DNA of 64,000 nt from an uncultured Roseobacter sp. (GCF_947492555.1 NZ_CANLNE010000007.1:10302-74301); one strand, 5' to 3'; shown: positions 12,939 through 30,409, counted from the stretch's first letter. Notes: generated by a model from the sequence alone, not told the origin. Program-made: numbers and translations.

Positions 12939-13921
12939 GCGAAGCGTCCCTCCCCTCCTCGTATCTCGAGCAATACCTAGAACCCTATCGCGATTTGATC
13001 CTGAAGGACGACATAATCGAGTTGGCGATCAACCCGGATGGTAATGTCTGGATCGAACGCCAAGGTGCCCACGCCATGGAGAGAATTGACCGCACTGTCG
13101 AGGTGGCCGCAGCAGCAAATCTGGCTGCCACATTGGTTGGTGATGCGCGCGCGCGAGTGTCGCAGAAGTCGCCTTTAGTTTCAGGTAAGATCGACTACCT
13201 TGAGCGCCCGCTACGCATCCAGGTTGTTGTGCCACCCGCGGTAGAACACGGCGCAGCGATCTCCATTCGGCTATTTGGCGTTGGTGGCCAGACAACCTTC
13301 GATCCTGAGTATCTGTTCGGGAAGCCGGTCTCGCTCGATGGTCGGCGGCAATCGAGACTCTCAGAAGTCGAGGAAATTGCAAAGAGCGACCTCTCCAGAG
13401 CCTTGTCGTCGCTCGTCCGCCATCGTTTGAATCTTTTGGTCAGCGGTGGGACGTCCACCGGCAAAACCACATTCGCAAGGCATTTGCTGAAATCGGTTCC
13501 GGACGACGAGAGGCTCATCACCATTGAAGACGCCTTCGAGCTTTTCCCTGGTCAGCCAAACACTGTTTGCCTGTTGTCTGAGCGTGTTCCGACATCTCAG
13601 CGGTCAACAAGTGCTCTGCTACAGGCGAGTTTGCGCATGCGCCCGGATCGCATCGTTGTGGGCGAGTTGCGCGGTGCTGAAGCGCTGACATATCTGGAAG
13701 CCATCAACACGGGTCACGGCGGATCGGTGACAACAATCCACGCCGAAACCGCTGAGCTTGCGATAGACCGGTTGGCGATCATGGTCTTGCAGGCCGGGAC
13801 ACCTTTGACCTTCGCCGAGGTACAGAGCTACATCCGACGGTCGATAGATGTCATTGTTCAGCTAGGACGCGACAGCGGTAAACGCGGCGTCTCAGAGGTC
13901 CTGGTTGTTGGGACACGCTGA
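12935..13921 (+). CDS. virB11: VirB11 family ATPase
   Basis: Walker A GGTSTGKTT, TIED, LRMRPDRIVVGELRG, NTGHGGSVTTIHA. Confidence 0.95.
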   Translation: MSEASLPSSYLEQYLEPYRDLILKDDIIELAINPDGNVWIERQGAHAMERIDRTVEVAAAANLAATLVGDARARVSQKSPLVSGKIDYLERPLRIQVVVPPAVEHGAAISIRLFGVGGQTTFDPEYLFGKPVSLDGRRQSRLSEVEEIAKSDLSRALSSLVRHRLNLLVSGGTSTGKTTFARHLLKSVPDDERLITIEDAFELFPGQPNTVCLLSERVPTSQRSTSALLQASLRMRPDRIVVGELRGAEALTYLEAINTGHGGSVTTIHAETAELAIDRLAIMVLQAGTPLTFAEVQSYIRRSIDVIVQLGRDSGKRGVSEVLVVGTR

Positions 13922-14032
13922 TTAAACCAAACTGCAAAATTTCGGAGATTCTTTTTTCACGATTGAGTTTTTCGTACGAATGTTGTCAAGCTTTCTGCGG
14001 ATGGCGAAGTGGTGAGCATGGCCTGCTATTGT

Positions 14033-14626
14033 TTAATATGCCTCAGCTAAGCTCTGGGGTGTTGACAGCGCTTTGTCTGCTTCTTTTTTCGAGAACTCAT
14101 AAGTTTCGTCCGAATGACATTCGAGCAATCCTAGAGGCCCCAGCCCTGCATCGGATGTATAGCATTCCAGAAGCTTACGTACGATGACCGGTATCATCAT
14201 GCTTTGAGGTCCAAAGTGTTTTGCATCATGCGCGCTAAGCTTCATAACCAATCCGTTTCGCAGGTCAGCAACCGAAAACTGGGTCCACATAGATCGAAAC
14301 TCGCCCATGAAAAAATGCCATGCCTCAGCGCGTTCGGGATCCGCTGTCAACTGTTGGTGAATGAACCAAAGCGTAGGCACCTTGCGGAACTCAGGGTCCT
14401 TCTCGCGAAGAACCTCTCCAAAGCGTGTCAAAACAATCGGAAATCTTAGCTCAATGACACCAGATTTATGCAGCCATGAACGATACGCGGAAGCAAATGG
14501 CGCGCCGTATCTGAAGGGCTCTGCAAGCTCTTTGTCGCGAAGCGTTGGCTGTTTGAGTGCGTTAGCCAAGATACGAGACATGCGCTCTCTGTTCAATCCA
14601 AAATTACCGTGAAAAAATACAGTCAC
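14033..14626 (-). CDS. DUF4007-family protein (SspB/BrxA-like winged helix), short form (197 aa)
   Basis: GTG at 14626 with GGAGG RBS; RSWLHKSGVIE..LTRFG..DP....TLWFIHQQL....AEAWHFF matches the DUF4007 pattern as recalled. Confidence 0.7.
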   Translation of the reverse strand: MTVFFHGNFGLNRERMSRILANALKQPTLRDKELAEPFRYGAPFASAYRSWLHKSGVIELRFPIVLTRFGEVLREKDPEFRKVPTLWFIHQQLTADPERAEAWHFFMGEFRSMWTQFSVADLRNGLVMKLSAHDAKHFGPQSMMIPVIVRKLLECYTSDAGLGPLGLLECHSDETYEFSKKEADKALSTPQSLAEAY

Positions 14627-14730
14627 CCATTGATCCTCCGTATTAAGACTTGACGACAATCGAAGCACTCAATGCCAGTGCCCAGCAACCATGCCATCGC
14701 GAAGGCGAGCATATTCAAGAGGAAGAAAAA

Positions 14731-15798
14731 ATGACAGAGGAGCAAAGTTCGCCAGAGCTTGATCTGAGCGCTCTGGCGTTCGAGCAGAACCACCAAACCT
14801 TTCGCGCCCTCAACCACCAGATGTGGCAAATTCCACTCATCTCCATGACGCTGACAGGTGGATTATGGTTCGGGGTGTCCAAAGTAGATGGTTCACCATT
14901 CTTTCAAGTTGCGCTGTTGTTCCTGGCAACTGTCGGCAATGCCTGTTTATTTTTGGTGATTCAGCGTCTGCGCTACGTGATAGAGCAGACGCTCAATTGG
15001 TTAGAAACCCGTTCACCCGCAAACTTTGTTTCAGCCAAGGGCGATTGCTGGTACAACAGACCTCTGGTTGTGCGCCGGTCATTCCAGTCGATGCTCCTCC
15101 TCGCGTGTTTTACCAGCTTTAGCCTGCTGGTCATGACATGTTTTCAAATTGATTGGTCTCGGGTCGCGAATCCTATGACGAAAACTCCGGCATCCGCATA
15201 TTATGACCAACACGCGTTGGACTTGGCCGACAGCTATGAAGGCATCTCGGCGGATGCTGCGCACCCGGGTCTCGCGAATATCCTCAAGGAAGGCTTTGCA
15301 GACGCACGGGTGGATATTCTTGATGTAGGTGCCGGAACAGGCCGAGACTCGGCTTGGCTCGCTTTGCTCGGCCATCGGGTTGTTGCAGCAGAACCGTCGA
15401 GCGCCATGCTTCAGATCGCCCGCCACGCCCACAAAGACAGCTCCATTCAATGGGTCCGCGACGCCTTGCCCGGGTTGGACATCATTAGCAGCCATACAAG
15501 GAGGTTTGATATCATCGTTCTGAGCGCAGTTTGGATGCATATCTCCGAGGAGGACCGCCCGGCCGCTGTTTCTACGATTGCTTCGTTGTTGAAGCCTAGC
15601 GGTTTTGTCTACATCACCCTCCGTCTTGGTCCGGCAGACGCGGCACGCTCAATTTTTGAAGTATCTTTGGATGAGCTGACTGAACTGGCAGGAAGTAACG
15701 GCTTCCAGATACAATACCTTGAAACACGCCCTGACCTCCTCGGCCGCGACGAGATCACCTGGCAAAGCGTCCTGCTATCGACTGAGAGCAAAACTTGA
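14731..15798 (+). CDS. 3-TM membrane domain fused to a class I SAM-dependent methyltransferase
   Basis: Three hydrophobic segments in the first ~145 aa, no stop codon, then motif I ILDVGAGTGRDS, VVAAEPS, FDIIVLSAVWMHI. Confidence 0.8.
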   Translation: MTEEQSSPELDLSALAFEQNHQTFRALNHQMWQIPLISMTLTGGLWFGVSKVDGSPFFQVALLFLATVGNACLFLVIQRLRYVIEQTLNWLETRSPANFVSAKGDCWYNRPLVVRRSFQSMLLLACFTSFSLLVMTCFQIDWSRVANPMTKTPASAYYDQHALDLADSYEGISADAAHPGLANILKEGFADARVDILDVGAGTGRDSAWLALLGHRVVAAEPSSAMLQIARHAHKDSSIQWVRDALPGLDIISSHTRRFDIIVLSAVWMHISEEDRPAAVSTIASLLKPSGFVYITLRLGPADAARSIFEVSLDELTELAGSNGFQIQYLETRPDLLGRDEITWQSVLLSTESKT

Positions 15799-15906
15799 TC
15801 AATCGGCTCTGAATAGCCCATAACGTGGCCGTGCTGGGCTAGGGAAAAAGCACAAGAAAGACACATCTGACTTCCATGTTGCGTGTGCATGTTGCACCAT
15901 CGTTTC

Positions 15907-17799
15907 ATGAGCAAGTCTTTAAGATCTCTGACCTTTCCTTCAGATGTGGATACATCTCTAGATGACATCGATCAGGTGTTAATGAATCCATGCCTTGCTC
16001 ACTCAGTGTTCTATGATCGAGGTGTCGGGTACTTTACGTCGAGTTGGCTTCAACGTGTTTCAAGCGGCATAGCAGAGTTTGCGGGGAACGGCGGCAAGAT
16101 GCGGCTGATCACCAGTCCAAAGCTCAAGCCCGAAGATTGGGCAGCGATCAAACAGGGTGCGGACGCAATCCAAGACGACGTCCTGCTTCAGGCACTTAGA
16201 GACGAAGTTGATGAGCTCGAAAAAAGCGCAAGTTCCAAGCCTGTTCAGACACTATCATACATGATCGCGGAAAAGCTTCTGACCATCCGTATTGCTATAA
16301 CGACAGGCAAGTTGAGTGGAGACTACCATCCCAAACTTGGCATATTTCGTGATAGTGAGGATGAAGCGGTTGTCTTCCACGGTTCTCAGAACGAAACCGA
16401 GCAAGGCAGGCGCAATTTCGAGAGCTTAGATGTTTTCTTGAGTTGGGCTGACGCGCGCGACGCGTCACGTGTTCAGTCCCATCGAAACCGCTTTGAAAGA
16501 CTGTGGAACAACATTGATCCGAATGTCCAATGCTTCGATATCCCCGAGGCTATACGTCGGAATATCGCTCAGTTCTACCGGCCAAAAAGCGATTCGAAAG
16601 CAAAGGTCCTCAAAGACACAAGATGGCGCCACCAAGATGAGGCAGTTGAAAGGTTTCTAGCAGAGAAGAACGGCGTGCTCGAAATGGCAACCGGCACCGG
16701 TAAAACCCGGACAGCACTACGGATCATAGACAAGCTCACAACTCGCGATCTGGTCGATACTGTCATCGTGACCATGCGCGGCAACGACCTCCTAGAACAA
16801 TGGTTTCAGGCGCTTGTCACGGACTGCAACTGCAGGGTCTATCGGCAATTTGGCTCGCATCACGAAGGAGCGCGGTTTGTTGCGAGCCGCGGCAGAAGGC
16901 TACTCCTTGTTTCGCAGCACCACTTGCCGGAGTTTCTTTCGAGTGTTGAAGGGACAGCAGAGAGAACGCTGATTGTATGTGATGAAGTTCATGGATTTGG
17001 ATCGCCGGCACAGGTGACCACGCTTTCTGGTCTGGTGTCACCACTCAGCTACCGGTTAGGGCTGAGTGCGACCCCTGAAAGGGAGTATGATCAAGCTGGA
17101 AACGATTTCATTGAGAACGAAGTCGGCCCCATCATTTTCAAGTTTGAAATTGAAGATGCTATTCAACGCGGTATTTTGTGCGAATTTGATTACACGGCAT
17201 TAGAGTATGAATTGTCGGATGACGATCGGGCCGAAATCCGGAAAATCATCAAGCGCCACCATGCCCGTAGGGCGTCAGGTGAAGTCGTGAGCGACGAAGC
17301 ACTCTATCGTGACATTTCTCGTGTGCGAAAGGTTACGATAGAGAAGTTGGAACCTTTCAATGAGCATCTCACGAGCAAACCAGAGCTCTATGAACGCTCC
17401 CTGATCTTTGTAGAAACACGCAAATACGGTGAGCTTGTGCAAAGACTTCTTATGGATGCAGGAATTGTGTTCGGAACATATTACGAAGGTGATGAAGCGC
17501 AGCGCTTGTTGGATTTTGCGAACGGGCGACTGGACTGTCTGGTAAGTTGCCACCGGCTATCAGAAGGCATTGACATTAAGTCCGTCAAGAACATCGTTCT
17601 GTTTTCTTCAGCCCGGGCGAAACTGGAAACAATTCAGAGGCTTGGTCGTTGCCTGCGTACAGATCCCAACAACGAGGAGAAACGCGCGCATGTGCTAGAC
17701 TTTGTAGACTTTGGCTGTGATGACGATAGCGACAGCACAGACGTAAAGCGATATGACTGGCTGCGGAGCCTTAGCGCAACGCGAAAGGAAGAACAGTGA
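15907..17799 (+). CDS. pbeA: PLD-like nuclease + SF2 DEAD/DEAH helicase; PbeA-like (Dnd-associated restriction helicase)
   Basis: HPKLGIF...GSQNET PLD-type motif; MATGTGKT, DEVH, LSATP, QRLGRCLR; symbol assigned from architecture and synteny with dnd genes. Confidence 0.8.
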   Translation: MSKSLRSLTFPSDVDTSLDDIDQVLMNPCLAHSVFYDRGVGYFTSSWLQRVSSGIAEFAGNGGKMRLITSPKLKPEDWAAIKQGADAIQDDVLLQALRDEVDELEKSASSKPVQTLSYMIAEKLLTIRIAITTGKLSGDYHPKLGIFRDSEDEAVVFHGSQNETEQGRRNFESLDVFLSWADARDASRVQSHRNRFERLWNNIDPNVQCFDIPEAIRRNIAQFYRPKSDSKAKVLKDTRWRHQDEAVERFLAEKNGVLEMATGTGKTRTALRIIDKLTTRDLVDTVIVTMRGNDLLEQWFQALVTDCNCRVYRQFGSHHEGARFVASRGRRLLLVSQHHLPEFLSSVEGTAERTLIVCDEVHGFGSPAQVTTLSGLVSPLSYRLGLSATPEREYDQAGNDFIENEVGPIIFKFEIEDAIQRGILCEFDYTALEYELSDDDRAEIRKIIKRHHARRASGEVVSDEALYRDISRVRKVTIEKLEPFNEHLTSKPELYERSLIFVETRKYGELVQRLLMDAGIVFGTYYEGDEAQRLLDFANGRLDCLVSCHRLSEGIDIKSVKNIVLFSSARAKLETIQRLGRCLRTDPNNEEKRAHVLDFVDFGCDDDSDSTDVKRYDWLRSLSATRKEEQ

Positions 17800-18002
17800 C
17801 GAGTCCAAAAAAGAGAACCGCGAGCGAAGAAATCGCACTTGCGATTGCCGAAGCGGCGCAAGGCGTCTCGGTGAGCGTCACAGCTCAGACATCGACTGAG
17901 CGACTGCTGATTTCAACGCTGGATGTCATGCCGCCCACTCACAGGATCGAAAACACAATTGACGTCATACTTGAAGAGGACAGTTTGAGTGACAAGCAAT
18001 AA
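17796..18002 (+). CDS. small helical protein between helicase and ATPase; PbeB-like
   Basis: 68 aa, GTGA overlap with the helicase stop, overlaps the ATPase start. Confidence 0.6.
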   Translation: MTSPKKRTASEEIALAIAEAAQGVSVSVTAQTSTERLLISTLDVMPPTHRIENTIDVILEEDSLSDKQ

Positions 18003-19920
18003 CGTTCTTCTTCTTGGCTGGAATGCAAAGGGGCTTCGTGGCTATTTGCGCGATGCAAAAATTGCCCTAAAACCGGACAAGTATCGTCATGTCTTAGTTC
18101 AGATGCCAAACGGAACCGGCAAAACGACAACGATGGCTCTTTTGCGCTCAGCGCTTACGGGTCAACTAGATCCTTCGCTGTCGATCTCCTCACTTCAGGC
18201 TGACCGAACGACAAAGGAGGGACACTTTGAACTTCACTTATCAGTCTATGGCGAACGGCTATCCATTCGGCTCGAATGCGATTTCGAGATGGGGCGACAC
18301 TATTTCTACACAACCACCGTCGAAGCCGGACGGCAGAATGGGCACCTGCTGAGTACAGTCGACCCCGCATTGGCGGACGCTCTTGAGAGAAGTATCGAGC
18401 TGTTTGTGTTCGACGGCGAACTTGCGCAAAACATGCTTAAGGACGGTGCTGCTGCTGCGGACAGAGCTATTGAAGCCCTTTACAAGACCGATGCTTTTGA
18501 AGACCTGGTGAACAAAATTGGTGTCCTCAAAGAGAATCGAAAAAAGCTGAATAAGGATATCACCACCGCATCTGAGCAATCGGCGGTCAATCGGCTTGAA
18601 CGTGAGTATGAAGAGGCCAAAGAGATACTTGCGAAACTCACGCAAGAGAAGGACGGCTTGGATCGATCTCTTGCGAAGATCGACCGTCGGACCGCAGAGA
18701 TAACGGACCGCCTCGAAGAGCTCGGCCTCGAGGATCAAGCATTTAAGAATCGTCAAAAAGACATCGAAGATCGTGACCAAAAGGCGAGAAATGATATTTC
18801 GCGTTTCGCAACCGAAGCGGTTTCAAGTTTCAGATTGCCGCTAAGCCTTCATTCCCGTGTTGGAGAAAGACTTACAACACTCAACAACACATTGGAAACT
18901 AGGCGGCTTCCGCGCTCGTCAAAATCGTTCTTTGAGGAGCTCGCTACCAAGAAAAATTGTATATGCGGTGAAGAGATCGATGAGGCAAAGCGGAAATACA
19001 TTCTCTCACACGCAGACGATCATCTTGGTGATGAGCAAGTCCAAGTCATTAACGATATTAAGTACAAGCTCAAAGACGGATTCGACCGCCGTTGGTTTTC
19101 TGCCGTCGTCAATGACCTTAGTGAAGCTGAGGATCGTTTGACCAGCATAGCTCAGGAACGCGCTAGGCTGGATATCGAGAAGGCAGAAGCAGGCATGGAG
19201 GAGGTCGAAAGGCTTACATCCGAGCGAGAAGCACTTCAGGCAGAGCAAGCGCGGAAGTCTCAGGCTCTGCAATTCTTGACGGAGGTACCAATCTCGATAC
19301 ACGAGGCTGACTGGAAGAGAAACCTTCCAGCATGCAAGGAAGAGGAAGGCAAGCGCCGTAAGGCTTTCGAAATGGCTAGCGGCAATAACCGATACTTCAC
19401 AGCCGCGGACAAGTTAATTCGTGCAACTCAACGTGCTCGCAAGCTCGCGAAAGAACGGCTACAAGTGTTCGTGAAAGACCGAACAAACTCCCAACTCGAA
19501 AAAATCTTGGATAGCGAGATCATTCGTGTTTCCAGGATCGATGGCCGCCTTCATTTGGTGAATGAAGAAAACCTCCCGAAAGACAGCGCCAGCGAGGGCC
19601 AAAAACTTGCGGTGTGCTACGCATTTCTGACAGCCCTTTTGGCAGAAGCCCCGGCGCGCTTGCCGTTCATTGTAGATTCCCCTGCAGTCTCTCTGGACCT
19701 TGTTCTCCGGCAAAACGTTGGGGCTCTCATTCCCAAGATATTCGATCAATTAATTGTCTTCGTTATCTCCAGTGAGCGTGAAGGTTTCGCAGACTCGTTT
19801 GAGAAACGAACAGACACGCAGTTTGTCACTGCCTCAATCAATCAAGCTGACGGATCCGTTCTCATAGATGAAAGCAAGAGCACCTTCTTCCAATTCCAAA
19901 GCGGAGCGGTGTCCTCATGA
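17989..19920 (+). CDS. pbeC: Rad50/SbcC-like ABC ATPase with CxC hook; PbeC-like
   Basis: Walker A MPNGTGKTT, long coiled coils with central CICG, signature ASEGQK, Walker B FIVDSP; symbol assigned from synteny. Confidence 0.8.
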   Translation: MTSNNVLLLGWNAKGLRGYLRDAKIALKPDKYRHVLVQMPNGTGKTTTMALLRSALTGQLDPSLSISSLQADRTTKEGHFELHLSVYGERLSIRLECDFEMGRHYFYTTTVEAGRQNGHLLSTVDPALADALERSIELFVFDGELAQNMLKDGAAAADRAIEALYKTDAFEDLVNKIGVLKENRKKLNKDITTASEQSAVNRLEREYEEAKEILAKLTQEKDGLDRSLAKIDRRTAEITDRLEELGLEDQAFKNRQKDIEDRDQKARNDISRFATEAVSSFRLPLSLHSRVGERLTTLNNTLETRRLPRSSKSFFEELATKKNCICGEEIDEAKRKYILSHADDHLGDEQVQVINDIKYKLKDGFDRRWFSAVVNDLSEAEDRLTSIAQERARLDIEKAEAGMEEVERLTSEREALQAEQARKSQALQFLTEVPISIHEADWKRNLPACKEEEGKRRKAFEMASGNNRYFTAADKLIRATQRARKLAKERLQVFVKDRTNSQLEKILDSEIIRVSRIDGRLHLVNEENLPKDSASEGQKLAVCYAFLTALLAEAPARLPFIVDSPAVSLDLVLRQNVGALIPKIFDQLIVFVISSEREGFADSFEKRTDTQFVTASINQADGSVLIDESKSTFFQFQSGAVSS

Positions 19921-20441
19921 GTTCTGAACTGGTCACACGTGCACGTGGGTTTGTGCTCCACGAAGCCGCACGCGGCTACTTTGGCTACATCGATCAAAGA
20001 ATGTTCAGCAGAACCAGATCGTCAGATGCAGCGCGCGGTTCGCTTATTCTCTTTGATGCCTATTATGCAGGACTCATGCTGGGCCTCACCTACAGGAAAA
20101 CAGGTACTCCTGAGATGCTTGATCGGGCGGGCATATTCATTCAGACCTATCCGAATGAATATGAGCCGTACCGCGAGTACATTGCAGGCTTGCTCGTTGA
20201 TGCAGAGGTTACTGCTCTTCATTCTGAAGATTACTCCGAACAACAGCTTGAGAAGTCGATCGCGAAGCTTCTTCAAGTCGCCTCTCCTACGCGCTTGTCC
20301 CCGGAAGGCATGCACATCCTGAATCTGTATGCCGCGGGAGGCTTTGAGCTTCTTCGTAGCAATATGGGCGCCAAGCCGTCTGATCCGTCAAATTTCTTAA
20401 TTCGCTACCAAGCTTTACTCGAAAATGAAACTGGGCAGTAA
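19917..20441 (+). CDS. hypothetical protein with DndE-like character; PbeD-like (174 aa)
   Basis: ATGA overlap with the ATPase; C-terminal NLYAAGGFELL resembles the YAxGGxExL motif of dnd-associated DndE-like proteins. Confidence 0.65.
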   Translation: MSSELVTRARGFVLHEAARGYFGYIDQRMFSRTRSSDAARGSLILFDAYYAGLMLGLTYRKTGTPEMLDRAGIFIQTYPNEYEPYREYIAGLLVDAEVTALHSEDYSEQQLEKSIAKLLQVASPTRLSPEGMHILNLYAAGGFELLRSNMGAKPSDPSNFLIRYQALLENETGQ

Positions 20442-20447
20442 CTTTTG

Positions 20448-22274
20448 ATGGAACGAGTCTCGGACCTACTCTGCCAGCGCGCGACACCGACTACCGTATC
20501 TGGTCTTTTTGGCGGAATGACTCTCTTTCGCGTGCCAGCGTACCAACGTGCATATGAGTGGACGGATGAGCAGATAGACGCCTTCATCGACGATGTTCGC
20601 AGGTGTTGGCAAAAGCGTATCAACGGTGAACGTGAGCGACACTTTTTTGGATCCGTGGTAACCGCGCCTCGAGACCCTGGCGGTCTGGTTCGCCCACGAC
20701 GGGATGTGATAGACGGGCAGCAGCGGTTTGCCACTTTTCTCCTTTTCGTGGCGGCGCTACGGCAACACTGTTTGCTGGCAGCGGCCGAGTTTGGTGCGGA
20801 TGATGCACAGCGCGGAACCGCCTTGAGCACAATGGCGGAAACTCTCCAGTTCCGTTTCATCATGAGCAGAGATCTCGATTTCATGGAGGCCAGGGACGTT
20901 TATCCCCTGACCTTGAATGAGACCGATGACGCCTATTTCAAAGCATTGTTGCGAGGCGATCATGTAGAAGAAGTAGCTCAATCTCACTACCTGCTAAAGG
21001 CTGCGTTTGACGCATGTTTTGCAATGCTTCAGGGGCATCGCGAGGCGACCGGGTCCACCGCGCTTGAATTCAATGCGCTGAACCAATTCTACGCCAGTGC
21101 TCTCGAAGACTGGGAAGTCGTTCATATTGAGGCTAATGCACCGGAGCACGCCAGCCTCATTTTCAGGGTGTTGAACAACAGAGGTCTTCCCGTCAGCGAT
21201 TGTGATCTTCTCCGGGCAACCACCATGGAACGGGCAGAACAAAGGCTGGAACCAGCAGAGCGAGATGAGCTATCTGATGCTTGGAAGGAAATCGGTGGCA
21301 TTGCCGAAAACCCCGACACCTATCTTCAATTGGCATATCAGACTCGTACGGGAAAACGCTTCAACACAGCGAGGACATCAACAGAGTTTGAAGCGATGCA
21401 TTTTGAGGAGCTTTCAAGCGGTGATCTTCTCGGTGCAGCAGAGGCAAGGTCACTTCTTCAGAGTGTGCAAACCCTGAAGACCGACATGGTAATGATGAAG
21501 GCTTTGACCGGTGGCGACATCGCCGGTGGGGGTCTGCAATTGACACCGGTCATGGCTCATCGACTGGCATTCACCCTAGGAGACCTAAAGCAGCACTGGA
21601 TACTCCCCCTGGTCTGCGCATCGCGAAGCCTCAATGCCGATCATCGCGAGCGACTGCTTTGTGTTTTGGAGCGGTTTGCATTCCGGTATGGGGTCTTGGC
21701 GCGCGCGCGGATTGCGGAATACGATCGCAGGATGGGGCCCATTATTACACTTCTGAACACATCGCCAGCTGACTATCGATTGCCCGAAGTCGAAGCGATT
21801 TTGACGGATCTTCTAGATAGATACGCGACCAGAGAGGCGATGGAGCGTCAATTAGATGGGCTCGAGTACGAGCGACACAAGAAAGAGTTGAAGTACATTC
21901 TAGCCATGAGCGAATTCATGTCGGCGTGGTATGATGGCCAGGCGAACGGTCGACCAACCGTTCATGCGCCCAATGTACCGATCGATATCCGCGCAATGAC
22001 CCTGGAGCATATCAGTCCGCAGAACCCTGAAGAGGCAGGGGCAGAAATGCTACCTCACTTGCATAAACTTGGAAACCTTACCTTGCTCAGCCAAGATGAG
22101 AATGATCGTGCCGGAAACAGGCCTTTCGTTGACAAGAAGCCGGTCCTTCAAGGTTCTCGCCTGTCGATCAATCAGAACATCGCCGAGGAGGATAAATGGG
22201 GGGCCGAACAGGCCATCGCGCGACAAGACGCATTGCGAGATCAAGCGATGAGAGTATTTGATTTAACGTTTTGA
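20448..22274 (+). CDS. DUF262 (DGQQR) + DUF1524 HNH nuclease; GmrSD/SspE-like
   Basis: VPAYQRAYEW, IDGQQR, FRVLNNRG; C-terminal LEHISPQ...LGNLTLL..EN. Confidence 0.88.
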   Translation: MERVSDLLCQRATPTTVSGLFGGMTLFRVPAYQRAYEWTDEQIDAFIDDVRRCWQKRINGERERHFFGSVVTAPRDPGGLVRPRRDVIDGQQRFATFLLFVAALRQHCLLAAAEFGADDAQRGTALSTMAETLQFRFIMSRDLDFMEARDVYPLTLNETDDAYFKALLRGDHVEEVAQSHYLLKAAFDACFAMLQGHREATGSTALEFNALNQFYASALEDWEVVHIEANAPEHASLIFRVLNNRGLPVSDCDLLRATTMERAEQRLEPAERDELSDAWKEIGGIAENPDTYLQLAYQTRTGKRFNTARTSTEFEAMHFEELSSGDLLGAAEARSLLQSVQTLKTDMVMMKALTGGDIAGGGLQLTPVMAHRLAFTLGDLKQHWILPLVCASRSLNADHRERLLCVLERFAFRYGVLARARIAEYDRRMGPIITLLNTSPADYRLPEVEAILTDLLDRYATREAMERQLDGLEYERHKKELKYILAMSEFMSAWYDGQANGRPTVHAPNVPIDIRAMTLEHISPQNPEEAGAEMLPHLHKLGNLTLLSQDENDRAGNRPFVDKKPVLQGSRLSINQNIAEEDKWGAEQAIARQDALRDQAMRVFDLTF

Positions 22275-22276
22275 GT

Positions 22277-23449
22277 TCAGGCCGCGCTGCCAACGCGGCC
22301 CCGCCTGATGTCAGCAACCGCTTGAATGAACAGTTCAGCCGTTGTCTCAATCTGTTCGTCGGTCGTGCCATAGCCCAAGCCCAGTCGAAACGCGTTTTTT
22401 GTACGCTCCGTTCCTGCACCAAACATGGCCTCAAGGACATGAGAGTCCTCTACTGATTGCGTCGAACAAGCGCTGGAGCTTGAAAAGGTGATCTGGTCGG
22501 TCAGACGTCGCATCAGCGCAAAGGGCTCAACCGATGGGATCGAAAGATTCAGAGAATTGGGAATTCGAGATGCTTCATTCCCATTCACCCATGCCCCCGT
22601 TTCTTCTACAAGTCGGCGCTCCAGCTTATCCCTCAGGTCATTGATGCTCTCAGCATCGCCGAGGCGGGATTGTCGCAATTCAAAAGCCGCCCCAAGCCCA
22701 ACAATCCCGGCTGTGTTGAGCGTTCCAGAGCGAAGTCCTCGCTCCTGACCCCCTCCCCGGTTGATCGGCTCAAGCGCCACATGCGGGCGGCGCCGACGAC
22801 AATAGAGGACCCCAATTCCCTTGGGACCATACATTTTGTGACCAGATAGGCTTGCAAGGTGGATGTTTGCGTCTTGAACGTCGATCTTCTCGTAGGCTAT
22901 CAACTGTGTCAGATCGCTGTGAAACAGAGCACCGTATCGCTCACACAAATACCCAATTTCTGAAAGCGGGTGGCGCACGCCGGTCTCGTTGTTGGCGGCC
23001 ATACAGCTTACGAGTGCCACCCCTTTTTTGAGTTCTGCCTCGAGCCGGTCCAAATCAATCCTGCCCTGTACGTCCACTGAAAGGACGATCACGTCTTCGG
23101 CTGGACTTGAATGTTTTGCCGCTTCAAGCACAGAAGGGTGTTCTGTTGCGACCGTGATAATGCGTTGGTTGTCCGATCGGCGCGGACTGGCGACCACACC
23201 TTTGATGGCGAGATTGTTCGCCTCGGTTGCGCCGCTTACAAAGACTATGTCGGCCGGTCTTGCGCCAATTCCCTTCGCGATATGTTCGCGCGCGCGTTCG
23301 ATGGCTGCGGCTGCGGCGGCGCCATCAGGGTGGTCTATTGCCGAGGGGTTGCCTGTCAATTCGCGCATGGCGTCAACAACACGATCAATCACCATCTCAT
23401 CGACTGGCGTTGAGGCGTTGTGATCAAGATAAATTGACCCGGGAGTCAT
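22277..23449 (-). CDS. dndA: cysteine desulfurase DndA (IscS family)
   Basis: YLDHNASTP, SGHKMYGPKGIG (PLP lysine), SSSSACS (catalytic Cys); last gene of the dnd operon. Confidence 0.92.
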   Translation of the reverse strand: MTPGSIYLDHNASTPVDEMVIDRVVDAMRELTGNPSAIDHPDGAAAAAAIERAREHIAKGIGARPADIVFVSGATEANNLAIKGVVASPRRSDNQRIITVATEHPSVLEAAKHSSPAEDVIVLSVDVQGRIDLDRLEAELKKGVALVSCMAANNETGVRHPLSEIGYLCERYGALFHSDLTQLIAYEKIDVQDANIHLASLSGHKMYGPKGIGVLYCRRRRPHVALEPINRGGGQERGLRSGTLNTAGIVGLGAAFELRQSRLGDAESINDLRDKLERRLVEETGAWVNGNEASRIPNSLNLSIPSVEPFALMRRLTDQITFSSSSACSTQSVEDSHVLEAMFGAGTERTKNAFRLGLGYGTTDEQIETTAELFIQAVADIRRGRVGSAA

Positions 23450-23823
23450 GCCGCATCTCCTGCCAGAAGCCTTGCTGCATCAGCTGGCGAGTTTATGCGA
23501 ATTGCGATGTAACCAATGCCGCGGTCGATATGGCATCTCAGGCGTCGCATTAGGTCTTCGTCATCTAATTCTGCTCCGCTTTGCCCTTGCTCGACAAGTA
23601 TCAGCATTGAAAGGAATATCGGTTGGTCGGATCCAAAGAGCGTATAGGCGTTAAATTCCTGCCCATTTTCCTCCGGTGGAACCATGTCGCCAACTGGTCC
23701 TGTCTCGAGTGAGGCGGTCAGAGCCATCCGGCACAGGAGGTTCGGTGTGAGGCCGCTGCGTTGACGCAACATACGGAGACGGCCAGTTGCCTCAGTTGAT
23801 ACTCTGAGCTTTGTAAAATGCAT
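23446..23823 (-). CDS. dndE: DNA phosphorothioation protein DndE
   Basis: LRVSTEATGRLRMLRQRSGLTPNLLCRMAL, RCHIDRG; downstream of dndD. Confidence 0.9.
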   Translation of the reverse strand: MHFTKLRVSTEATGRLRMLRQRSGLTPNLLCRMALTASLETGPVGDMVPPEENGQEFNAYTLFGSDQPIFLSMLILVEQGQSGAELDDEDLMRRLRCHIDRGIGYIAIRINSPADAARLLAGDAA

Positions 23824-25763
23824 CAGACTAGTTCCGCTGAAAGATCGCCAACCGGAAAAAGTGTCGTGCGTCTTGCTTCCGCGGTCGCCTCAAGCTTGTA
23901 GGTCCGTGCTACATGCGCTCCGAGGGACTTGGCTAGGGAGGGTGTCATTTCCGTATCGGTGCAAAGCAAGATTACCTGATGGCTTGCAGTTGGCAGATAG
24001 TCTCGAACAATTGCCAATCGGTGGCTTTGGTCAAGCCTTGAGAAAGGGGTGTCGATCACGATCGGCAGTTGACGGCCGCTTGTCTTTCCCAAAGCCCAAA
24101 GCATGGAAATCGCATAAATCTGCCGTTCTCCTGCAGATAAGCTGTTCTTCTCGATTGTTATTCCATCACTGCCAATCAGGCTCACGCTAAAATCCGCCGG
24201 GTCGATTTCGACGCTAGAAACCAATGATTTCTTGCGGCTCAATCGGTTGAAACAGTCAACGAACTCGGCCTTTAATCTGCTGATCCTGTCCTCGAGGAGC
24301 GCAACTCCAAAAGAAGAAAGTGCGGTTTGCGCGCGCACCGCGAGAGCGATCCCGCGCTCTTCTTGAGCCAATTTCTTCAGAGCAGCTTCCTCCGACCTGA
24401 ACTTGCGCTCTATCGCTTCAATATCACGCAAAAGCCGATCTATTCCTTCGTCGCAGAACTGCAGATCACGTTCCAAACCCCCAAGAGTGCGCTCAGCCTC
24501 TTTCAAAGCGGAAAGCGCTTGTTCGGCTTGTCCCGTGTCGAACCCCTCGAGCTCCCTTTTTAACTTGGCGCGAAGCTCTCTGTTTCTGTCAAACCTGTCG
24601 GCCAAGCTTGTTACTTCTTCCTGCCGCCCATCAGTCAGACAGTCCAGACGCCGCAAAATCCAATCTGGTTCTGCCAACAGACGTGGTCCCTGCCCTCCTG
24701 CATCTCCCTTCGTCACAGCACGCAAATCATCAAAATGCTGACTGGACCAGATGTTGCCTTTCTCGTTGGGTATGCTTGATTGCCGCTCAAACGCATCAAT
24801 GAAGGCGCGAATCGCGATCGCGTGAGTGCCCTGCCGCGCCTCAGTACAGGTTTGGTAAAAATGCTGTACCAATGTGGGCGCTAAACCTAGCGGCAACAGA
24901 TCGTTGGCCGCGCGCTTCAGTTGCGTGCTCAACTCGGACTGGTCTATCTCTGCGCTTCGAAGTTTGGTCAGGACGTCTTCGCGCGACAGTGCCTGCCGAC
25001 CACCTTCGTTGCGATAAGCGGCCTCGGATCGCTCCACCCGTCGCGCGGCTTGATCGCATTTGCTTTGCAGTTCGGCGCGAAGATCCTGTTGGGTTGCAAG
25101 CTCTTGTCTGAGGCGCTCCTGCTCGGACAGGAGGCGATCAATATTACCAGATGAATCCTGGTCTGCTCGCCGACTAGTATAGACAGTCAGGTCTGTCTGC
25201 AGCTGGTCGATAATGTCCAATCCCAGAAGCGATCGGATCGCATCTCTCAGCCCGAGGCTGCCATCGTCATCCGCGATCTCTTGTATCTTCTCGCCATCAA
25301 AAAAGAACAACTGTGAAAGACCGGGAGGCACAAGTTCTTCGACGTATTGCGCATATTCAGCCCGTTCCAGGTCAGAGATCGGGTGGCCTTCCCTAATAAG
25401 GTCAAGTGTTTCGACCACGGATTTTCCGCGGGATGACCAAGCGCGTTTGACCGTGTAGTTGACTTGCTGACCATTCTCCACGCGAACGAATGACAGCGTG
25501 ATGGCGGCCTCGCGCGTTGCCGCTGTCGCACTGATTTTTCTTAACAGATGCTCTTCATATGTTGATTGTGCAGTGCGTGGGCCAAGCGCTCTGCGACCGT
25601 ACAATACGAGCCGGATTGCATCGAGGAAGGTGGTTTTTCCGCCGCCATTATGCCCCAAGATGGCAACCACATTGGCACCCTCAGCCGGCACCGTCTCAAG
25701 GTCGAACGTGTGGCAACCGTCATACAGACCGACGTTCTCAAGGACTAACTCACGAAATCTCAT
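23823..25763 (-). CDS. dndD: DNA phosphorothioation ATPase DndD
   Basis: LENVGLYDG, Walker A GHNGGGKTT, LFFFDGEKI, LSAGERQ, IVIDTPFSRLD. Confidence 0.93.
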   Translation of the reverse strand: MRFRELVLENVGLYDGCHTFDLETVPAEGANVVAILGHNGGGKTTFLDAIRLVLYGRRALGPRTAQSTYEEHLLRKISATAATREAAITLSFVRVENGQQVNYTVKRAWSSRGKSVVETLDLIREGHPISDLERAEYAQYVEELVPPGLSQLFFFDGEKIQEIADDDGSLGLRDAIRSLLGLDIIDQLQTDLTVYTSRRADQDSSGNIDRLLSEQERLRQELATQQDLRAELQSKCDQAARRVERSEAAYRNEGGRQALSREDVLTKLRSAEIDQSELSTQLKRAANDLLPLGLAPTLVQHFYQTCTEARQGTHAIAIRAFIDAFERQSSIPNEKGNIWSSQHFDDLRAVTKGDAGGQGPRLLAEPDWILRRLDCLTDGRQEEVTSLADRFDRNRELRAKLKRELEGFDTGQAEQALSALKEAERTLGGLERDLQFCDEGIDRLLRDIEAIERKFRSEEAALKKLAQEERGIALAVRAQTALSSFGVALLEDRISRLKAEFVDCFNRLSRKKSLVSSVEIDPADFSVSLIGSDGITIEKNSLSAGERQIYAISMLWALGKTSGRQLPIVIDTPFSRLDQSHRLAIVRDYLPTASHQVILLCTDTEMTPSLAKSLGAHVARTYKLEATAEARRTTLFPVGDLSAELV

Positions 25764-27208
25764 AAGTTCGGCGCCTCGTTTGCCGCGCCCTCTTCTTCCA
25801 GCTCGGCAGCCAAATTTGCCAGAACTTCGTCCTCCGAGCGCCATTCCTTTTCAAGGATGCTTGCAATGCGCGTGTGGATCGATGACCTGCGACGCATGCC
25901 CTGAACCGAACGTTCGGCATCCAGCAGTTCGCCCATCATTTGGATTGGAAGGTCGTGTTCCTGGCAAACTTGGCGCAAAATGTCGCCATCGGCGGACGAA
26001 AACTCGAAGTCGTCGGCTTCGTGCGCATGGAGTTCTTTACCGAGCACATCCTTTACAATCTGATAGGCACTATTGGCCCAATCACCCAACTCACGTCGCC
26101 AAATGCGCTGAATCTCGTGGATTTCTGCTTCATGGATCAGCGTCGGAGCAGGCTCATCTGTGACGAGATTCGCCGCCTCCCTCTGTGCTTCCAACAACCT
26201 TTTGAGCACCTCTTGGCGGAAATCGCGTTTGTAGGGCCCGGGTATCAACCCATCGCCTGAGCGATTGAGCGTTATCTTCCCAGTGCGCCTGCGGAAATCT
26301 CGCACGACTTTCTTGCGCTCTGGATCCAGCGTCTCCGCCAGGAAGTCTCTAACGTCCAAGAGCGGTTCGAGCCATTCCTCGCCGTTGTCGACCATCGCCT
26401 CCATTGCTTTGTCCTTTGTGACGACAGTGCATACCCAGCAACCAAACCGGGAGTTGCCGCAGCTTTCGGTGTTTTTATCGACCACCAGCGGGCACTCACC
26501 CGCCTGAGCGTTGCGATACATCTTGAGAAGCTGACGATTGTCAGCTCCCCACGGTGACGGCGTTTGCAGGATATAGTCCCAAACGTCATCAACCGAGAGC
26601 GCCTCAATCGGTGTGAAAACATACGCACCCAAGAGCGACGAATGCCGCGAAAACAGACTCCCCTCCAGCCGGTGAAGCGCCATTACTTGCGCGCGTGTTG
26701 CGCTTTCAGCGCTGCGAACACCAAGCACCATAACAACTTCGCCAAACTCTGCGACGCGGCTTTTTATGAATGCATTGGCAGGGTCTATCTTAAGTCGTTC
26801 AGTGCACCACCGGAAGCGACGTGATGGAGCCGGATAGCCGCGTCCTATTAGGTTGACCCAGAAGCTATCATTTACATCAGGCACAACCTTGTGAGCCGAA
26901 ACCGGCATGCCCTGTGCTTTCGCTGCGTCGTTTATGCGCGTGAGTGCACTATCGATATAGTCCACAATAACGGGTGTTTCGACCAGCGTATCAGAGCTCA
27001 AGACATAGATTGGTTTTTCGCGTTCGGATTTCGGTAGTGCCTGCAGTGCGCGCCATATCATCTGCAATGCGCAGGTCGAGTCCTTTCCACCACTGTAGCC
27101 GATCACCCAAGGGCGCTTGTCGTTGCAATAGGCAACGCGAATCCGTTCTTCGAGTGCATCGAACGTAAGCGCTGCGTCAGGTTCGGTCGCCTTTTTTTCT
27201 CTACTCAT
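25760..27208 (-). CDS. dndC: DNA phosphorothioation sulfurtransferase DndC (PAPS reductase family)
   Basis: WVIGYSGGKDS, RWCTERLKI, SCGNSRFGCWVCTVV. Confidence 0.95.
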   Translation of the reverse strand: MSREKKATEPDAALTFDALEERIRVAYCNDKRPWVIGYSGGKDSTCALQMIWRALQALPKSEREKPIYVLSSDTLVETPVIVDYIDSALTRINDAAKAQGMPVSAHKVVPDVNDSFWVNLIGRGYPAPSRRFRWCTERLKIDPANAFIKSRVAEFGEVVMVLGVRSAESATRAQVMALHRLEGSLFSRHSSLLGAYVFTPIEALSVDDVWDYILQTPSPWGADNRQLLKMYRNAQAGECPLVVDKNTESCGNSRFGCWVCTVVTKDKAMEAMVDNGEEWLEPLLDVRDFLAETLDPERKKVVRDFRRRTGKITLNRSGDGLIPGPYKRDFRQEVLKRLLEAQREAANLVTDEPAPTLIHEAEIHEIQRIWRRELGDWANSAYQIVKDVLGKELHAHEADDFEFSSADGDILRQVCQEHDLPIQMMGELLDAERSVQGMRRRSSIHTRIASILEKEWRSEDEVLANLAAELEEEGAANEAPNL

Positions 27209-28290
27209 GCCGCGACCTGACCTTGCGCTTCCATGGCCGCCTTCATTCTTGCTTCCAATGGCAATCCAATAGTTTCGAACAAGACAGCCGCTCCAAGAAG
27301 AACGCTCCTGCGCTGGCCATTCATGCGTGCGTCGTTCATGACTTTGCCTTCCCAGAGTTCCGCATTTCGTCTCGACCAATCCAAGGAAGAAAGCGACTTT
27401 AGCTTCTCAGGCCATTCCTGAGGATAGGCATCAATCAGGGTTCCCCCGAGGACGCCGAAGGCTTGAAGCAAAACGCCGTGGGAGTGCACCGTGTTTTGCC
27501 GAAGATCATGCGCGTTCAAGCTTCCGCCATCCAGTCTTTGCCAGTCGTCCAAAACGTCGTAGAGCGCATTCCAGAATTGTACCACGAGATCGAGCGTTTC
27601 CTCGCCAAATCTGTCTCCTGCTGGACCAACCATCCATTCATGTGCCTGCTGCAAACTGGACAATGTGTAGAGCTTGGTTGTTCGGTTTGAGAGTGATTTT
27701 TTCTCAAGCTCTAAAAACCGATTGAAGAATGGCACAATTCGAAACACGTCGACGGATAGTCCGGCGAGCGGATCCCTTTTGTCGTATAGAATATTCAGCG
27801 AATTTGATGGGCGAACGGCGTTCATATTTAAATCTGCAAACATCTGTTGACTTCGCTCAAGTCCACGGTCCGCAAAGATCACAACTGATATCGTTTCATT
27901 TTCCAAGGCTGGCCTTGTCTTCAACGCATCTTCAATTGCCGCTCTGCGGTGTTGGCCGTCATTTAGAATGATCCGCGCATCCATCGCAAAGCTGAGCGTA
28001 CCAACATTCTTCAGTGCCCCATCGTTGCCCGCTGCGGTGAATGTCAGGTCCCCATCAACTGAAGCGCAAAGCGAGGAAAGGATGTAATTGTCCCAATTCT
28101 CAGCAAGGTAATTTGCGATCTGAGGTACCCTTGCCTTTGAAAGCACCCGTTGGGCACGCAGGTCAGGCGGCAGATCATCGCCGTCGAAAATGAACAGCCT
28201 CGGCACCATTTTCATGGGGACCATAACAGTGTAGTACGCAGTACGAGACTGAACGCCCCGGATCGCCTCGAATGTCAGCTCGTTTGCCAT
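27205..28290 (-). CDS. dndB: DGQHR-domain regulator DndB
   Basis: RAQRVLSKAR, ILNDGQHRRAAI, QQMFADLN; first gene of the dnd operon with GGAGG RBS. Confidence 0.92.
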   Translation of the reverse strand: MANELTFEAIRGVQSRTAYYTVMVPMKMVPRLFIFDGDDLPPDLRAQRVLSKARVPQIANYLAENWDNYILSSLCASVDGDLTFTAAGNDGALKNVGTLSFAMDARIILNDGQHRRAAIEDALKTRPALENETISVVIFADRGLERSQQMFADLNMNAVRPSNSLNILYDKRDPLAGLSVDVFRIVPFFNRFLELEKKSLSNRTTKLYTLSSLQQAHEWMVGPAGDRFGEETLDLVVQFWNALYDVLDDWQRLDGGSLNAHDLRQNTVHSHGVLLQAFGVLGGTLIDAYPQEWPEKLKSLSSLDWSRRNAELWEGKVMNDARMNGQRRSVLLGAAVLFETIGLPLEARMKAAMEAQGQVAA

Positions 28291-28486
28291 CGCTACCTCC
28301 TAGGCTGGAAGTTAACGGACGTTAGTGTGGAAGTCTATACGCAGGTCTAAATCGTGAGCTCTGCGAGCCTAAGAAGGGTAGTTTTCTTGCCGCATCACAT
28401 GGCATCATGAGCATGCAACGGGGATCATTTCCGATACAGAAGTGCAGTTGGCTACTCTGACTGATGAGCGATGCATTTATCAGAGG

Positions 28487-30409
28487 CTATTGTCCAATTT
28501 CGTCCCCGAGCAGTTCGTCGATGAAGTCACCTTGCTCGCGGAAGACTTGCTCCCACTTTTCTGGGATCGGGTCCTCCCGATCCAAGGTTTCCGGACGCAG
28601 CTCACCGGCAGCGTATTCATTCATTTGCGTCTGCATGGACCGCGATTGCCGTCGGCGTGCACGCTCGCTTGTTGCAGTGGATTCGAAAGACTCGGGATGG
28701 GGTGCAGGAGGAGCGGGATTCGGGTCTTCTAACCAGGGCCCTACGCCATCAACACGTGGGGGATATGGAAAATCGCGGCCCGCCTGACGATCTGACAGAT
28801 TGATGAAAAAGGAATCCTCGAAGTATTTGATGCGCTGTGCACGGATCGGGTGCTGCGGTGAGGCCAGGATGATCACCTCATCGGGATCCATGGTGCGTGC
28901 CTCGGTCTCGGAGAGAAGTGGACGTTCCTCAAGACGAGAAGTCGTCGAGGTCGCGCCCAAAATGCCCTTGTTGCGACCATACATGCGGGTCACCGCCTCC
29001 CGGGTGGTGCTGCCGACGGCCGCCGAGACCTCGCGAACGGTACGCTGGTCGCGAGGCGTTATGTAGAGCTTGAGCCCTGCGCCGTTCTCAAGGCTTTCGC
29101 GCCCCTCGGGTCCGTAGATGCGATCGAGCGAGGCCAACGACTGCGCAATTATCGCGACGCGCCCGCCATAGGCGGCGAGCGAATGGATCGCCCGCTCGAG
29201 ATAAGGCATCGCGCCCATTTGCTGGAACTCGTCGATCATCATCATGACCGGCCACGGCTCGTAGGGACCCGGCTCGTTCTGCCGCAAACTGGCAATGAGA
29301 TCCGCGAACATGAGCCGCAGGAGCGGTGCCAGCGTCGCGATGTGATCTTCTGACACCACGATGTAGAGCGCGTGCGGTTTTTTCCTGAAGTTCGCGAACT
29401 CGAAGTCGCTTGCATCAGTTGCCGTCCGGACGGCAGGGTTGTCCCACTGCTTCAGACCGGCCGTCATCAAAGCCTGGATGTTGGACGTCAGCAGCCGCGA
29501 CGACGCGCTGGCCGCGTTGATCCAGAGCTCGCGCACCGTCGCTTCCTTCGCCTCTTCGGCATAAGCACTGTACTGTGCATTCTTGTAGTCCCCGCCGGTG
29601 ACGATCTTGTTGACCTCACCGAGCGTCGGTCGGCCGCGTTGGATCGCCAGAAGGCAAGCCGCGACGAATATCGATTTGCCCGCCTCGGAGAAGGTGTCGA
29701 GTGTCCTGTTGTCCTTGTCGAGGAAGAGGTCCGCCAGAATCGAGACTTCTGTGAACTGCTGGGCGAAGCTGGGGGCGGCCGCGATCCGCGCGAGCGGGTT
29801 GTAGCGATGCGAACTATTCGCCCAATCGAACGGGCTGAAGCGAAAGACCTCATCGCCGTTGAGCGCCCTCAGCCTTGCCGTCTTCTCGAAATTCTCGCCC
29901 TTCACATCCAGAACCACGACCGAACCTGCGAAAGACAAAAGGTTCGGGATCACGAAGCCCACGCCCTTCCCGGCCCGGGTCGGGGCCACCATCATCACAT
30001 GCGGTATGTCGCTCGCAGAGATGTAGGGCGCCTTTGACGCGGGCTTTCCCAGCTTGCCGCAGACAAACCCGGATCCCGGTGTCTGGAGCATGCCGTTCGC
30101 CTTGAGTTCACGTCTGGTCTGCCAATGTGCGGACCCGTAATCATCCCGGTCCTGCGCCCAGGTCCAGCTGAAGGCCAGAACCGCCAGTCCAATGGCCCCG
30201 AAGCCAACGGCGCCGAACGCAACCTTGAATGCCTCGGGATGCGCCGCGCGCAGACCCGCGCTCGCCGTCCAGACGGCAAACATGTCAAACTCGGCAAACC
30301 CCGTTCTCAACGCCAGTGCGAGATAGAAGCTCGCCGCGATCGTGCCGAGTGCCGTTCCACAGAGAGTCCCGACTGGCACGGCAGCCCAGAGAGGAAGCCG
30401 GGTGCTCAT
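28487..30409 (-). CDS. virD4: type IV coupling protein VirD4/TraG
   Basis: Two N-terminal TM segments, YGSAHW, Walker A APTRAGKG, LDVKGEN, MMIDEF. Confidence 0.95.
   Translation of the reverse strand: MSTRLPLWAAVPVGTLCGTALGTIAASFYLALALRTGFAEFDMFAVWTASAGLRAAHPEAFKVAFGAVGFGAIGLAVLAFSWTWAQDRDDYGSAHWQTRRELKANGMLQTPGSGFVCGKLGKPASKAPYISASDIPHVMMVAPTRAGKGVGFVIPNLLSFAGSVVVLDVKGENFEKTARLRALNGDEVFRFSPFDWANSSHRYNPLARIAAAPSFAQQFTEVSILADLFLDKDNRTLDTFSEAGKSIFVAACLLAIQRGRPTLGEVNKIVTGGDYKNAQYSAYAEEAKEATVRELWINAASASSRLLTSNIQALMTAGLKQWDNPAVRTATDASDFEFANFRKKPHALYIVVSEDHIATLAPLLRLMFADLIASLRQNEPGPYEPWPVMMMIDEFQQMGAMPYLERAIHSLAAYGGRVAIIAQSLASLDRIYGPEGRESLENGAGLKLYITPRDQRTVREVSAAVGSTTREAVTRMYGRNKGILGATSTTSRLEERPLLSETEARTMDPDEVIILASPQHPIRAQRIKYFEDSFFINLSDRQAGRDFPYPPRVDGVGPWLEDPNPAPPAPHPESFESTATSERARRRQSRSMQTQMNEYAAGELRPETLDREDPIPEKWEQVFREQGDFIDELLGDEIGQ

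Follow-up and report, generated by a model that had tools for sequence, protein, structure and literature searches.

A gene of the DndI family closes a pbeABCD-like operon on a roseobacter conjugative element

We analyzed a stretch of 64,000 nucleotides (nt) from an uncultured Roseobacter sp. (GCF_947492555.1 NZ_CANLNE010000007.1:10302-74301), referred to here as the window. On its + strand, a gene for a 608-residue protein closes a pbeABCD-like operon and abuts a convergent dnd operon for phosphorothioate (PT) modification of DNA. The protein belongs to the DndI family (Orf5 in PADLOC), and we refer to the gene as dndI. Its reading frame is uninterrupted from ATG 20448 to the stop codon at 22272-22274, and the protein is single-copy in the genome. 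The TAA of the preceding pbeD-like gene (20439-20441) is separated from the ATG by six nucleotides (CTTTTG); the mechanical start of the open reading frame (ORF) is an in-frame TTG at 20445. Pfam identifies GmrSD_N (DUF262) at residues 19-259 (1e-28) and GmrSD_C (DUF1524) at residues 463-598 (1e-18). A preliminary description of the locus had reported the 6-bp spacing, the DGQQR-HNH architecture with both motifs intact, and the position of the gene as fifth in a Pbe-like operon, and all of these observations were confirmed.

Residues are numbered from ATG 20448. The DGQQR NTPase motif, D89-R93, is invariant in 56 of 56 aligned sequences and aligns with D83-R87 of Salmonella DndI (Protein Data Bank code 9JFL), so that R93 is the equivalent of the catalytic R87. 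The HNH residues E520/H521, N543, N552, and N557 are invariant or nearly so among the 56 aligned family members; H521, N543, and N552, which align with DndI H508, N532, and N541, are invariant. A phmmer alignment to 9JFL shows that Y32, in the motif P30-x-Y32-Q33-R34, corresponds to Y25, the residue through which Salmonella DndI senses PT. This position is a tyrosine in 13 of 15 members of the DndI clade described below, whereas in 38 homologues without dnd linkage it is a phenylalanine in 28 and a tyrosine in 10. As a discriminator of the clade the tyrosine was rejected: it is enriched in the clade without being specific to it, and it is not diagnostic because it is also present in SspE and in GmrSD-type proteins.

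Orf5 is the old name of an ORF between dptBCDE and dptFGH in Salmonella Cerro 87, which was renamed DndI by Tang et al. (2024, NAR, PMC11662687; 9JFL). DndI is a DGQQR ATPase and HNH nickase that forms a defense system with IscS-DndBCDE alone in E. coli (PMC11662687). The window protein has the same DUF262(DGQQR)-DUF1524(HNH) organization and a similar length of about 600 residues, and it carries equivalents of Y25, R87, and N541. Both genes stand last in a restriction operon and are convergent with a dnd modification operon.

Profile hidden Markov models (HMMs), sequence, fold, and phylogeny all place the window protein in the DndI family. With the PADLOC model Orf5 PDLC02697 it scores 1093 bits over 585 of 585 model positions, followed by Orf5 PDLC02695 (447 bits) and Orf5 PDLC02701 (268 bits). 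The SspE models reach 72 bits and cover only N-terminal residues 28-123, and the GmrSD-type mREase_IV model reaches 54 bits. Residues 12-594 of Salmonella DndI, reconstructed from the printed 9JFL alignment, score highest with a different subfamily model, Orf5 PDLC02701 (927 bits), followed by PDLC02695 (490 bits). The best sequence match by phmmer in the Protein Data Bank is 9JFL (E 1.6e-37), in which residues 20-606 align end to end with chain residues 12-594; SspE follows with its N terminus only (E 8e-7), and BrxU gave no sequence match in this search. When an AlphaFold2 model of the window protein (predicted local distance difference test score 83.4) was submitted to Foldseek, the top match was again 9JFL (E 2e-22, template modeling (TM) score 0.50), ahead of SspE 7DRS (4e-14, TM 0.42/0.34) and BrxU 7P9K (3e-5, TM 0.33). 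NCBIfam has no model for this protein. Membership in the SspE class was considered and rejected, given the length of 608 residues, the restriction of the SspE models to the N terminus, and the lack of sspBCD genes in the window; a search of the window's own genome for an SspE-class protein at 1e-40 gave no match.

Homologues were retrieved by a word-indexed search, which returned 13 relatives, and by an exhaustive search, which returned 167 representatives at E <= 1e-30. A careful IQ-TREE phylogeny (LG+C20+F+G4, 37 rows) was built with an ingroup of the window protein and its close relatives, distant dnd-linked homologues, and Salmonella DndI. For comparison, the tree included 19 homologues with no dnd genes nearby (HEC-06-like by PADLOC), two PADLOC mREase_IV proteins, and one SspE, the GmrSD-type and SspE proteins being taken from other genomes. 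Fifteen rows were treated as dnd-linked: nine with verified dnd context, including the window protein and Salmonella DndI, and six close metagenomic homologues assumed to be linked, of which three had their context checked later. The 15 rows form a single clade with support of 100/98, present in 100% of the bootstrap trees, in a phylogeny that has long branches and GmrSD-type and SspE outgroups defined by HMM rather than by characterization. The GmrSD-type pair forms a sister group on a long stem, and the non-dnd proteins and SspE lie outside. A phylogeny against characterized SspE and GmrSD proteins had been proposed in the preliminary description; run with HMM-defined outgroups, it groups the window protein with neither, and instead with Salmonella DndI and the dnd-linked homologues. 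In an extended tree with more pbe-linked and dndFGH-linked members, the DndI clade was kept at 100/99, and the subclade of the window was purely pbe-linked (6 rows, support 98/95). Because the backbone of the extended tree is unresolved, the partner operon of DndI has changed at least twice.

Genomic context agrees with this grouping. Six of six representatives sampled from the 167 adjoin dnd genes, and dnd genes were found within 10 kb of 0 of 71 weaker homologues (<=112 bits). Adjacency to dnd genes holds for every examined clade member, across phyla and down to 27-29% identity, save for one decayed locus (L109/L110). There, in metagenome ERZ25070530, a truncated pbeA that retains only the helicase C-terminal part is followed by pbeB, pbeC, pbeD, dndI, and an IS66 transposase gene; no dnd modification genes are present in the covered 4-10 kb downstream of dndI (5-6 kb upstream), and the gene has apparently been separated from its modification operon. 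Clade members occur after dndFGH, after pbeABCD, or with neither operon. Genome G516 and Microscilla marina both have dndI downstream of dptFGH and directly against a convergent dndE-D-C-(B) operon, which is the Salmonella topology. The occurrence in both operon settings together with the dnd linkage thus identifies DndI as a dnd-dedicated tail gene able to follow either restriction operon.

The four genes upstream of dndI (Table 1) fit the PbeABCD order of an HKD-SF2 (superfamily 2) helicase, a small protein, a CxC ATPase, and a second small protein, adjoining dnd genes. They match in order and size the PbeABCD genes of Haloterrigena jeotgali (Xiong et al. 2019), which also adjoin dnd modification genes and belong to the CxC ABC ATPase-DndE system of Aravind and co-workers. 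The H. jeotgali operon has four genes, whereas the window adds a fifth that encodes a predicted HNH nickase. The dndI gene becomes the sixth if a membrane-methyltransferase gene, situated 84 nt before pbeA, is counted. PbeA matches Pfam ResIII, Helicase_C, and, weakly, PLDc_2, as well as NCBIfam dnd_restrict_1 below its cut-off; its true start is probably ATG 15907. The pbeB candidate has no HMM match, and homologues with 55-65% identity are found at the same place in three related loci (L003-L005). The pbeD-like gene has no Pfam, PADLOC, or NCBIfam match. When a seven-sequence PbeD profile was compared with DndE by hhalign, the probability was 0.2% and not significant, in contrast to 99.8% for the PbeC-DndD control, and the published claim that PbeD is a cognate of DndE was not reproduced with these shallow profiles.

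Table 1. Features in and around the dndI locus, in window coordinates
Feature	Position	Strand	Evidence or remarks
Type IV secretion genes, upstream flank	4098-13921		VirB4, VirB8-11
Short DUF4007 gene	14033-14668	-	SspB-like, weak
Membrane-methyltransferase-like gene	14650-15798	+	Class I S-adenosylmethionine (SAM) methyltransferase domain, residues 218-334
pbeA, HKD (PLD-like) nuclease domain and SF2 helicase	15883-17799	+	PADLOC PbeA PDLC02703, 661 bits
pbeB candidate, 68 residues	17796-18002	+	Position and size only; overlaps both neighbors
pbeC, CxC-type DndD-like ABC ATPase	17989-19920	+	PADLOC PbeC, 73 bits; C-I-C within KKNCICGEE
pbeD-like gene, 174 residues	19917-20441	+	Position and conserved synteny only
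dndI-type gene, 608 residues, DUF262/ParB-like NTPase with DGQQR and DUF1524 HNH nuclease	20448-22274	+	Pfam, PADLOC Orf5, 9JFL, clade
PT-sensing Tyr equivalent, codon Y32	20541-20543	+	phmmer alignment to 9JFL
DGQQR motif, D89-R93	20712-20726	+	Alignment to 9JFL; family alignment
HNH motif region, E520, H521, N543, N552 (= DndI N541), N557	22005-22118	+	Alignments
dndB-C-D-E-A modification operon	22277-28290	-	Pfam DndB, PAPS_reduct, AAA_23, DndE, Aminotran_5; PADLOC DndA-DndE, 145-647 bits
dndC	25760-27379	-	C-terminal match to Sp-DndD and PbeB
Type IV secretion genes, downstream flank	28487-32334		VirD4/TraG coupling protein, relaxase
ArdC-type anti-restriction gene	42594-43610	-	ArdcN and zincin metallopeptidase domain

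The pbe genes overlap each other by 4, 14, and 4 nt, in order. The 6-nt gap before dndI, and gaps of 0-11 nt or overlaps between pbeD and dndI in homologues, indicate that dndI is expressed from the pbe operon. Consensus scans for promoters and terminators across 13800-28600 found sites no more numerous than in shuffled sequence and are neutral on co-transcription.

The block pbeA-(B)-C-(D)-dndI is found beside dnd genes in relatives of decreasing similarity. It is present at 100-77% DndI identity in L002-L004, where L002 is an uncultured Roseobacter contig with 99-100% protein identity to the window; in Sulfitobacter and Celeribacter DndI is 77% identical. In Pseudaestuariivita it is 84% identical, on a contig that stops inside dndI, and on metagenomic contig L108 the identity is 67%. 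Representatives P0015, P0018, and P0025 retain the block at 41, 34, and 32% DndI identity, and two further Rhodobacteraceae, at 29% (G016) and 33-40%, carry it with other gene orders relative to dnd. The block also occurs in Bacteroidota (L006), in a Saprospiraceae metagenome-assembled genome (MAG), and in a Flavobacterium MAG with dndI adjacent but convergent, as well as in two metagenomic PbeA loci, L121 and L141. For L003 and L004, the ratio of nonsynonymous to synonymous substitution rates (dN/dS) is 0.083 for dndI, compared with 0.067 for pbeA, 0.076 for pbeC, and 0.044 for pbeD, and dS is similar across the genes at about 0.33 (0.47 for the short pbeD). dndI is therefore maintained by purifying selection and travels with the pbe block.

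When metagenomic contigs were scanned with PbeA as the anchor, dndI followed pbeD in 2 of 35 assessable loci, or in 2 of the 17 showing dnd genes, and so it is not a general Pbe component. Elsewhere, the slot after pbeD is occupied by RNA polymerase alpha C-terminal domain (alpha-CTD)/sigma region 4 proteins, a small HNH protein, or a HATPase_c_3 protein. The proteins with alpha-CTD and sigma-70 region 4, of 400-670 residues, recur at the pbe/dnd junction (L124 5119-7101, L143 9478-11484, and L148 5535-7202), and one is found just upstream of dndI (L199 374-1579).

Downstream, dndI meets the dnd modification operon head-on. Only 2 nt separate the dndI stop codon from that of dndA (22272-22279), a distance with no space for terminators. 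L003, L004, and L108 have an identical 2-nt spacing, and throughout the family dndI typically abuts dndE or dndA head-on. The operon includes dndA, so the system need not rely on iscS, in contrast to the Salmonella system, which uses IscS. The genome, which is 99.99% complete, contains no dndFGH, and a search for DptH (TIGR03237) that gave a true positive elsewhere found none; thus Pbe and DndI are the only recognizable PT-dependent restriction modules in this genome. In DndC, about 70 C-terminal residues match Pfam Sp-DndD (PF20306) and PADLOC PbeB (32 bits), and so DndC in the window appears to carry the small modification-arm protein as a fusion.

Taken together, these data make it probable that the window protein is a ParB-like NTPase fused to a DUF1524 HNH nickase of the DndI type, with PT sensing and nicking assigned by analogy to the Salmonella enzyme. 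The ATPase of Salmonella DndI is stimulated by GpsAAC/GpsTTC DNA via the hydrophobic patch around Tyr-25; the enzyme nicks constitutively, is toxic in the absence of PT, and is freed from self DNA by ATP hydrolysis (PMC11662687). In the window, dndI would share a transcript with the pbeABCD genes, as the last of the operon, and would probably be coupled to them in translation. The N-terminal DUF262 domain would meet double-strand PT marks made by the adjacent DndBCDEA, and the stimulated ATPase would release the protein from self DNA. Unmarked phage or plasmid DNA would stay bound and would be nicked by the HNH domain. As the last gene of the pbeABCD operon, dndI would give the element two restriction arms keyed to one PT mark, as in the dndFGH-dndI arrangement of Salmonella, although here the gene follows pbeABCD and resides on a conjugative element of a marine Roseobacter. 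The preliminary description had suggested an SspE-like reader of double-strand PT marks made by Dnd. The reading of PT marks is supported by homology, fold, phylogeny, and synteny, and would follow the mechanism of DndI, which makes this suggestion already published biology; the comparison with SspE did not hold, and it may mislead on mechanism because DndI is a constitutive nickase and SspE is activated by PT.

Several observations weigh against a direct transfer of the Salmonella mechanism. Identity to the characterized Salmonella DndI is low, about 19-25%, and the subclade of the window sits on a long stem in the tree, so that nucleotide preference, toxicity without PT, and DndI-type versus SspE-type switching could differ. 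The conserved tyrosine does not prove PT sensing, as it occurs in non-dnd relatives too. The GmrSD-type rows of the tree are PADLOC mREase_IV matches and not biochemically characterized GmrSD or BrxU. Finally, a gene coupled so tightly to pbeD and co-evolving with the pbe genes could also encode an obligate Pbe subunit. We infer by analogy that the protein senses PT, has ATPase and nickase activity, switches in the direction of DndI, and is independent of PbeABCD.

The alternative that survives best keeps the protein in the DndI family and reverses its regulation. In SspE (SspABCD-SspE, PDB 6JIV/7DRS), the nuclease is inactive until PT activates it. If the window protein behaved in the same way, it would be silent until PT in host DNA stimulated the NTPase; loss of PT would be harmless, and defense would need PT in trans. 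SspE is likewise a DGQQR NTPase and DUF1524 HNH nickase with a PT-sensing, Tyr-containing hydrophobic patch, whose residues are common to both proteins, and the distance of the window clade from Salmonella DndI means that homology does not constrain the direction of regulation. The retention of dndI without nearby dnd genes at L109/L110 would be easier to understand for a protein that is not toxic without PT. However, the closest characterized relative by every measure is DndI and not SspE. SspE is larger, with 750-820 residues and a more extensive C-terminal domain, whereas the C-terminal domain of the window protein is DndI-sized, and SspE reads single-strand CpsCA marks made by SspABCD. The clade is also strictly linked to a modification operon, as one would expect if its nuclease were dangerous in the absence of modification. 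We consider an SspE-type switch unlikely.

It is rather doubtful, but conceivable, that pbeABCD-dndI acts as a five-component restriction machine instead of as two arms working side by side. DndI would then supply the nicking step that PbeABCD reportedly lacks, the H. jeotgali system being reported not to degrade viral DNA (Xiong et al. 2019), and the abutment of dndI with the modification operon could couple their expression by convergent transcription.

A stronger form of association would make the protein an integral fifth Pbe subunit that provides or controls nuclease activity exclusively when bound to PbeABCD, without a DndI-like function of its own. The short or absent gap after pbeD here and in homologues is compatible with such a subunit, as is the joint inheritance of the five genes, whose dS is equal and whose dN/dS values resemble one another. 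The exclusively pbe-linked subclade of the window and the L109/L110 locus, which keeps pbe'BCD-dndI without adjacent dnd genes, point in the same direction. Against this, the same clade has members attached to dndFGH or to neither operon, and Salmonella DndI functions without Pbe proteins, with IscS-DndBCDE alone. PbeABCD of H. jeotgali defends without such a gene (PMC6459918), dndI is present at few of the assessable PbeA loci, and PbeA has an HKD nuclease motif of its own, as seen in its sequence and reported previously (PMC10853773). A role confined to the Pbe complex therefore seems improbable.

The remaining proposal, made in the preliminary description as a GmrSD add-on, is a dnd-independent passenger of the GmrSD/BrxU type IV class that cuts base-modified phage DNA; it can draw on the Pfam names GmrSD_N and GmrSD_C, the weak mREase_IV match, and the habit of defense islands to gather unrelated systems, but it is very hard to sustain, since the GmrSD-type proteins group apart from the DndI clade on a long stem, BrxU ranks no higher than third by fold and has no sequence match in the Protein Data Bank, and dnd linkage is kept across phyla at every examined clade member except L109/L110. 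Membership in this class was rejected, as the common ground is limited to superfamily-level Pfam domains. The stand-alone DUF262-DUF1524 proteins of PADLOC HEC-06 likewise have the same Pfam pair and catalytic motifs as the window protein; together with GmrSD and BrxU, which target base-modified DNA, they branch outside the DndI clade, lack dnd linkage, and have fewer residues (about 550-570 for the HEC-06 type).

The kind of protein, its Dnd dependence, and its structure are already published (Tang et al. 2024), which the preliminary description had missed, and PADLOC (2023) has a model for exactly this subfamily. The pbeABCD setting is thus a new context for a known kind of protein and not a new kind of system. 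The pairing of DndI with pbeABCD, or DndI as a tail gene common to both operon types, was not found in the searchable literature; looking there for a fifth gene with a Pbe name (PbeE, pbeABCDE), or for a connection between DndI and Pbe, led only to the DndI paper, with nothing on pbe in its available supplements, and the pairing appears to be undescribed. An unnamed DUF262 protein is now assigned to a family whose structure has been solved and whose mechanism has been tested. DndI emerges as a portable tail gene that follows both known Dnd-dependent restriction operons, dndFGH and pbeABCD, mostly head-on to the modification operon. The roseobacter element offers a testable system in which to ask whether Pbe and DndI act independently or jointly and how one PT mark serves two effectors.

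Decay was seen at some related loci. In G334, another Rhodobacteraceae genome (L102), dndI (11630-13485) and dndA (5767-6935) are each split into two ORFs by a frameshift or sequencing error, which could be system decay. In Geodermatophilus dictyosporus (L010), the dnd-linked DndI homologue at 10001-11743 contains an internal stop codon.

The membrane-methyltransferase-like gene heads the + strand genes of the island, and the N-terminal half of its product is unassigned. L002 has this gene too, but the 77%-identical islands of Sulfitobacter and Celeribacter do not carry it upstream of pbeA. The short DUF4007 gene is divergent from the methyltransferase and pbe genes; with its weak SspB-like match, it means that the preliminary statement that no ssp modification genes are present is nearly true. 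A homologue with 52% identity lies directly downstream of dndI in G334 (L102 13586-14176), and this gene may therefore be a recurrent companion of the module.

The whole island, at about 14.0-28.3 kb, has a lower GC content (0.50-0.55) than its surroundings (0.58-0.64) and lies inside a type IV secretion/conjugation gene set, in the slot between virB11 and traG/virD4. In Sulfitobacter sp. 20_GPM-1509m (L003), the same island occupies the same slot in inverted orientation, which suggests that the slot is a hot spot for cargo in conjugative elements of roseobacters. Only three other genomes among 400 sampled genera of the family gave a DndI-clade match, and one congener has none, a distribution that fits a mobile island. 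A megablast search of the whole island against PLSDB plasmids gave no match. The same element also carries, downstream of the restriction island, an ArdC-type anti-restriction gene.

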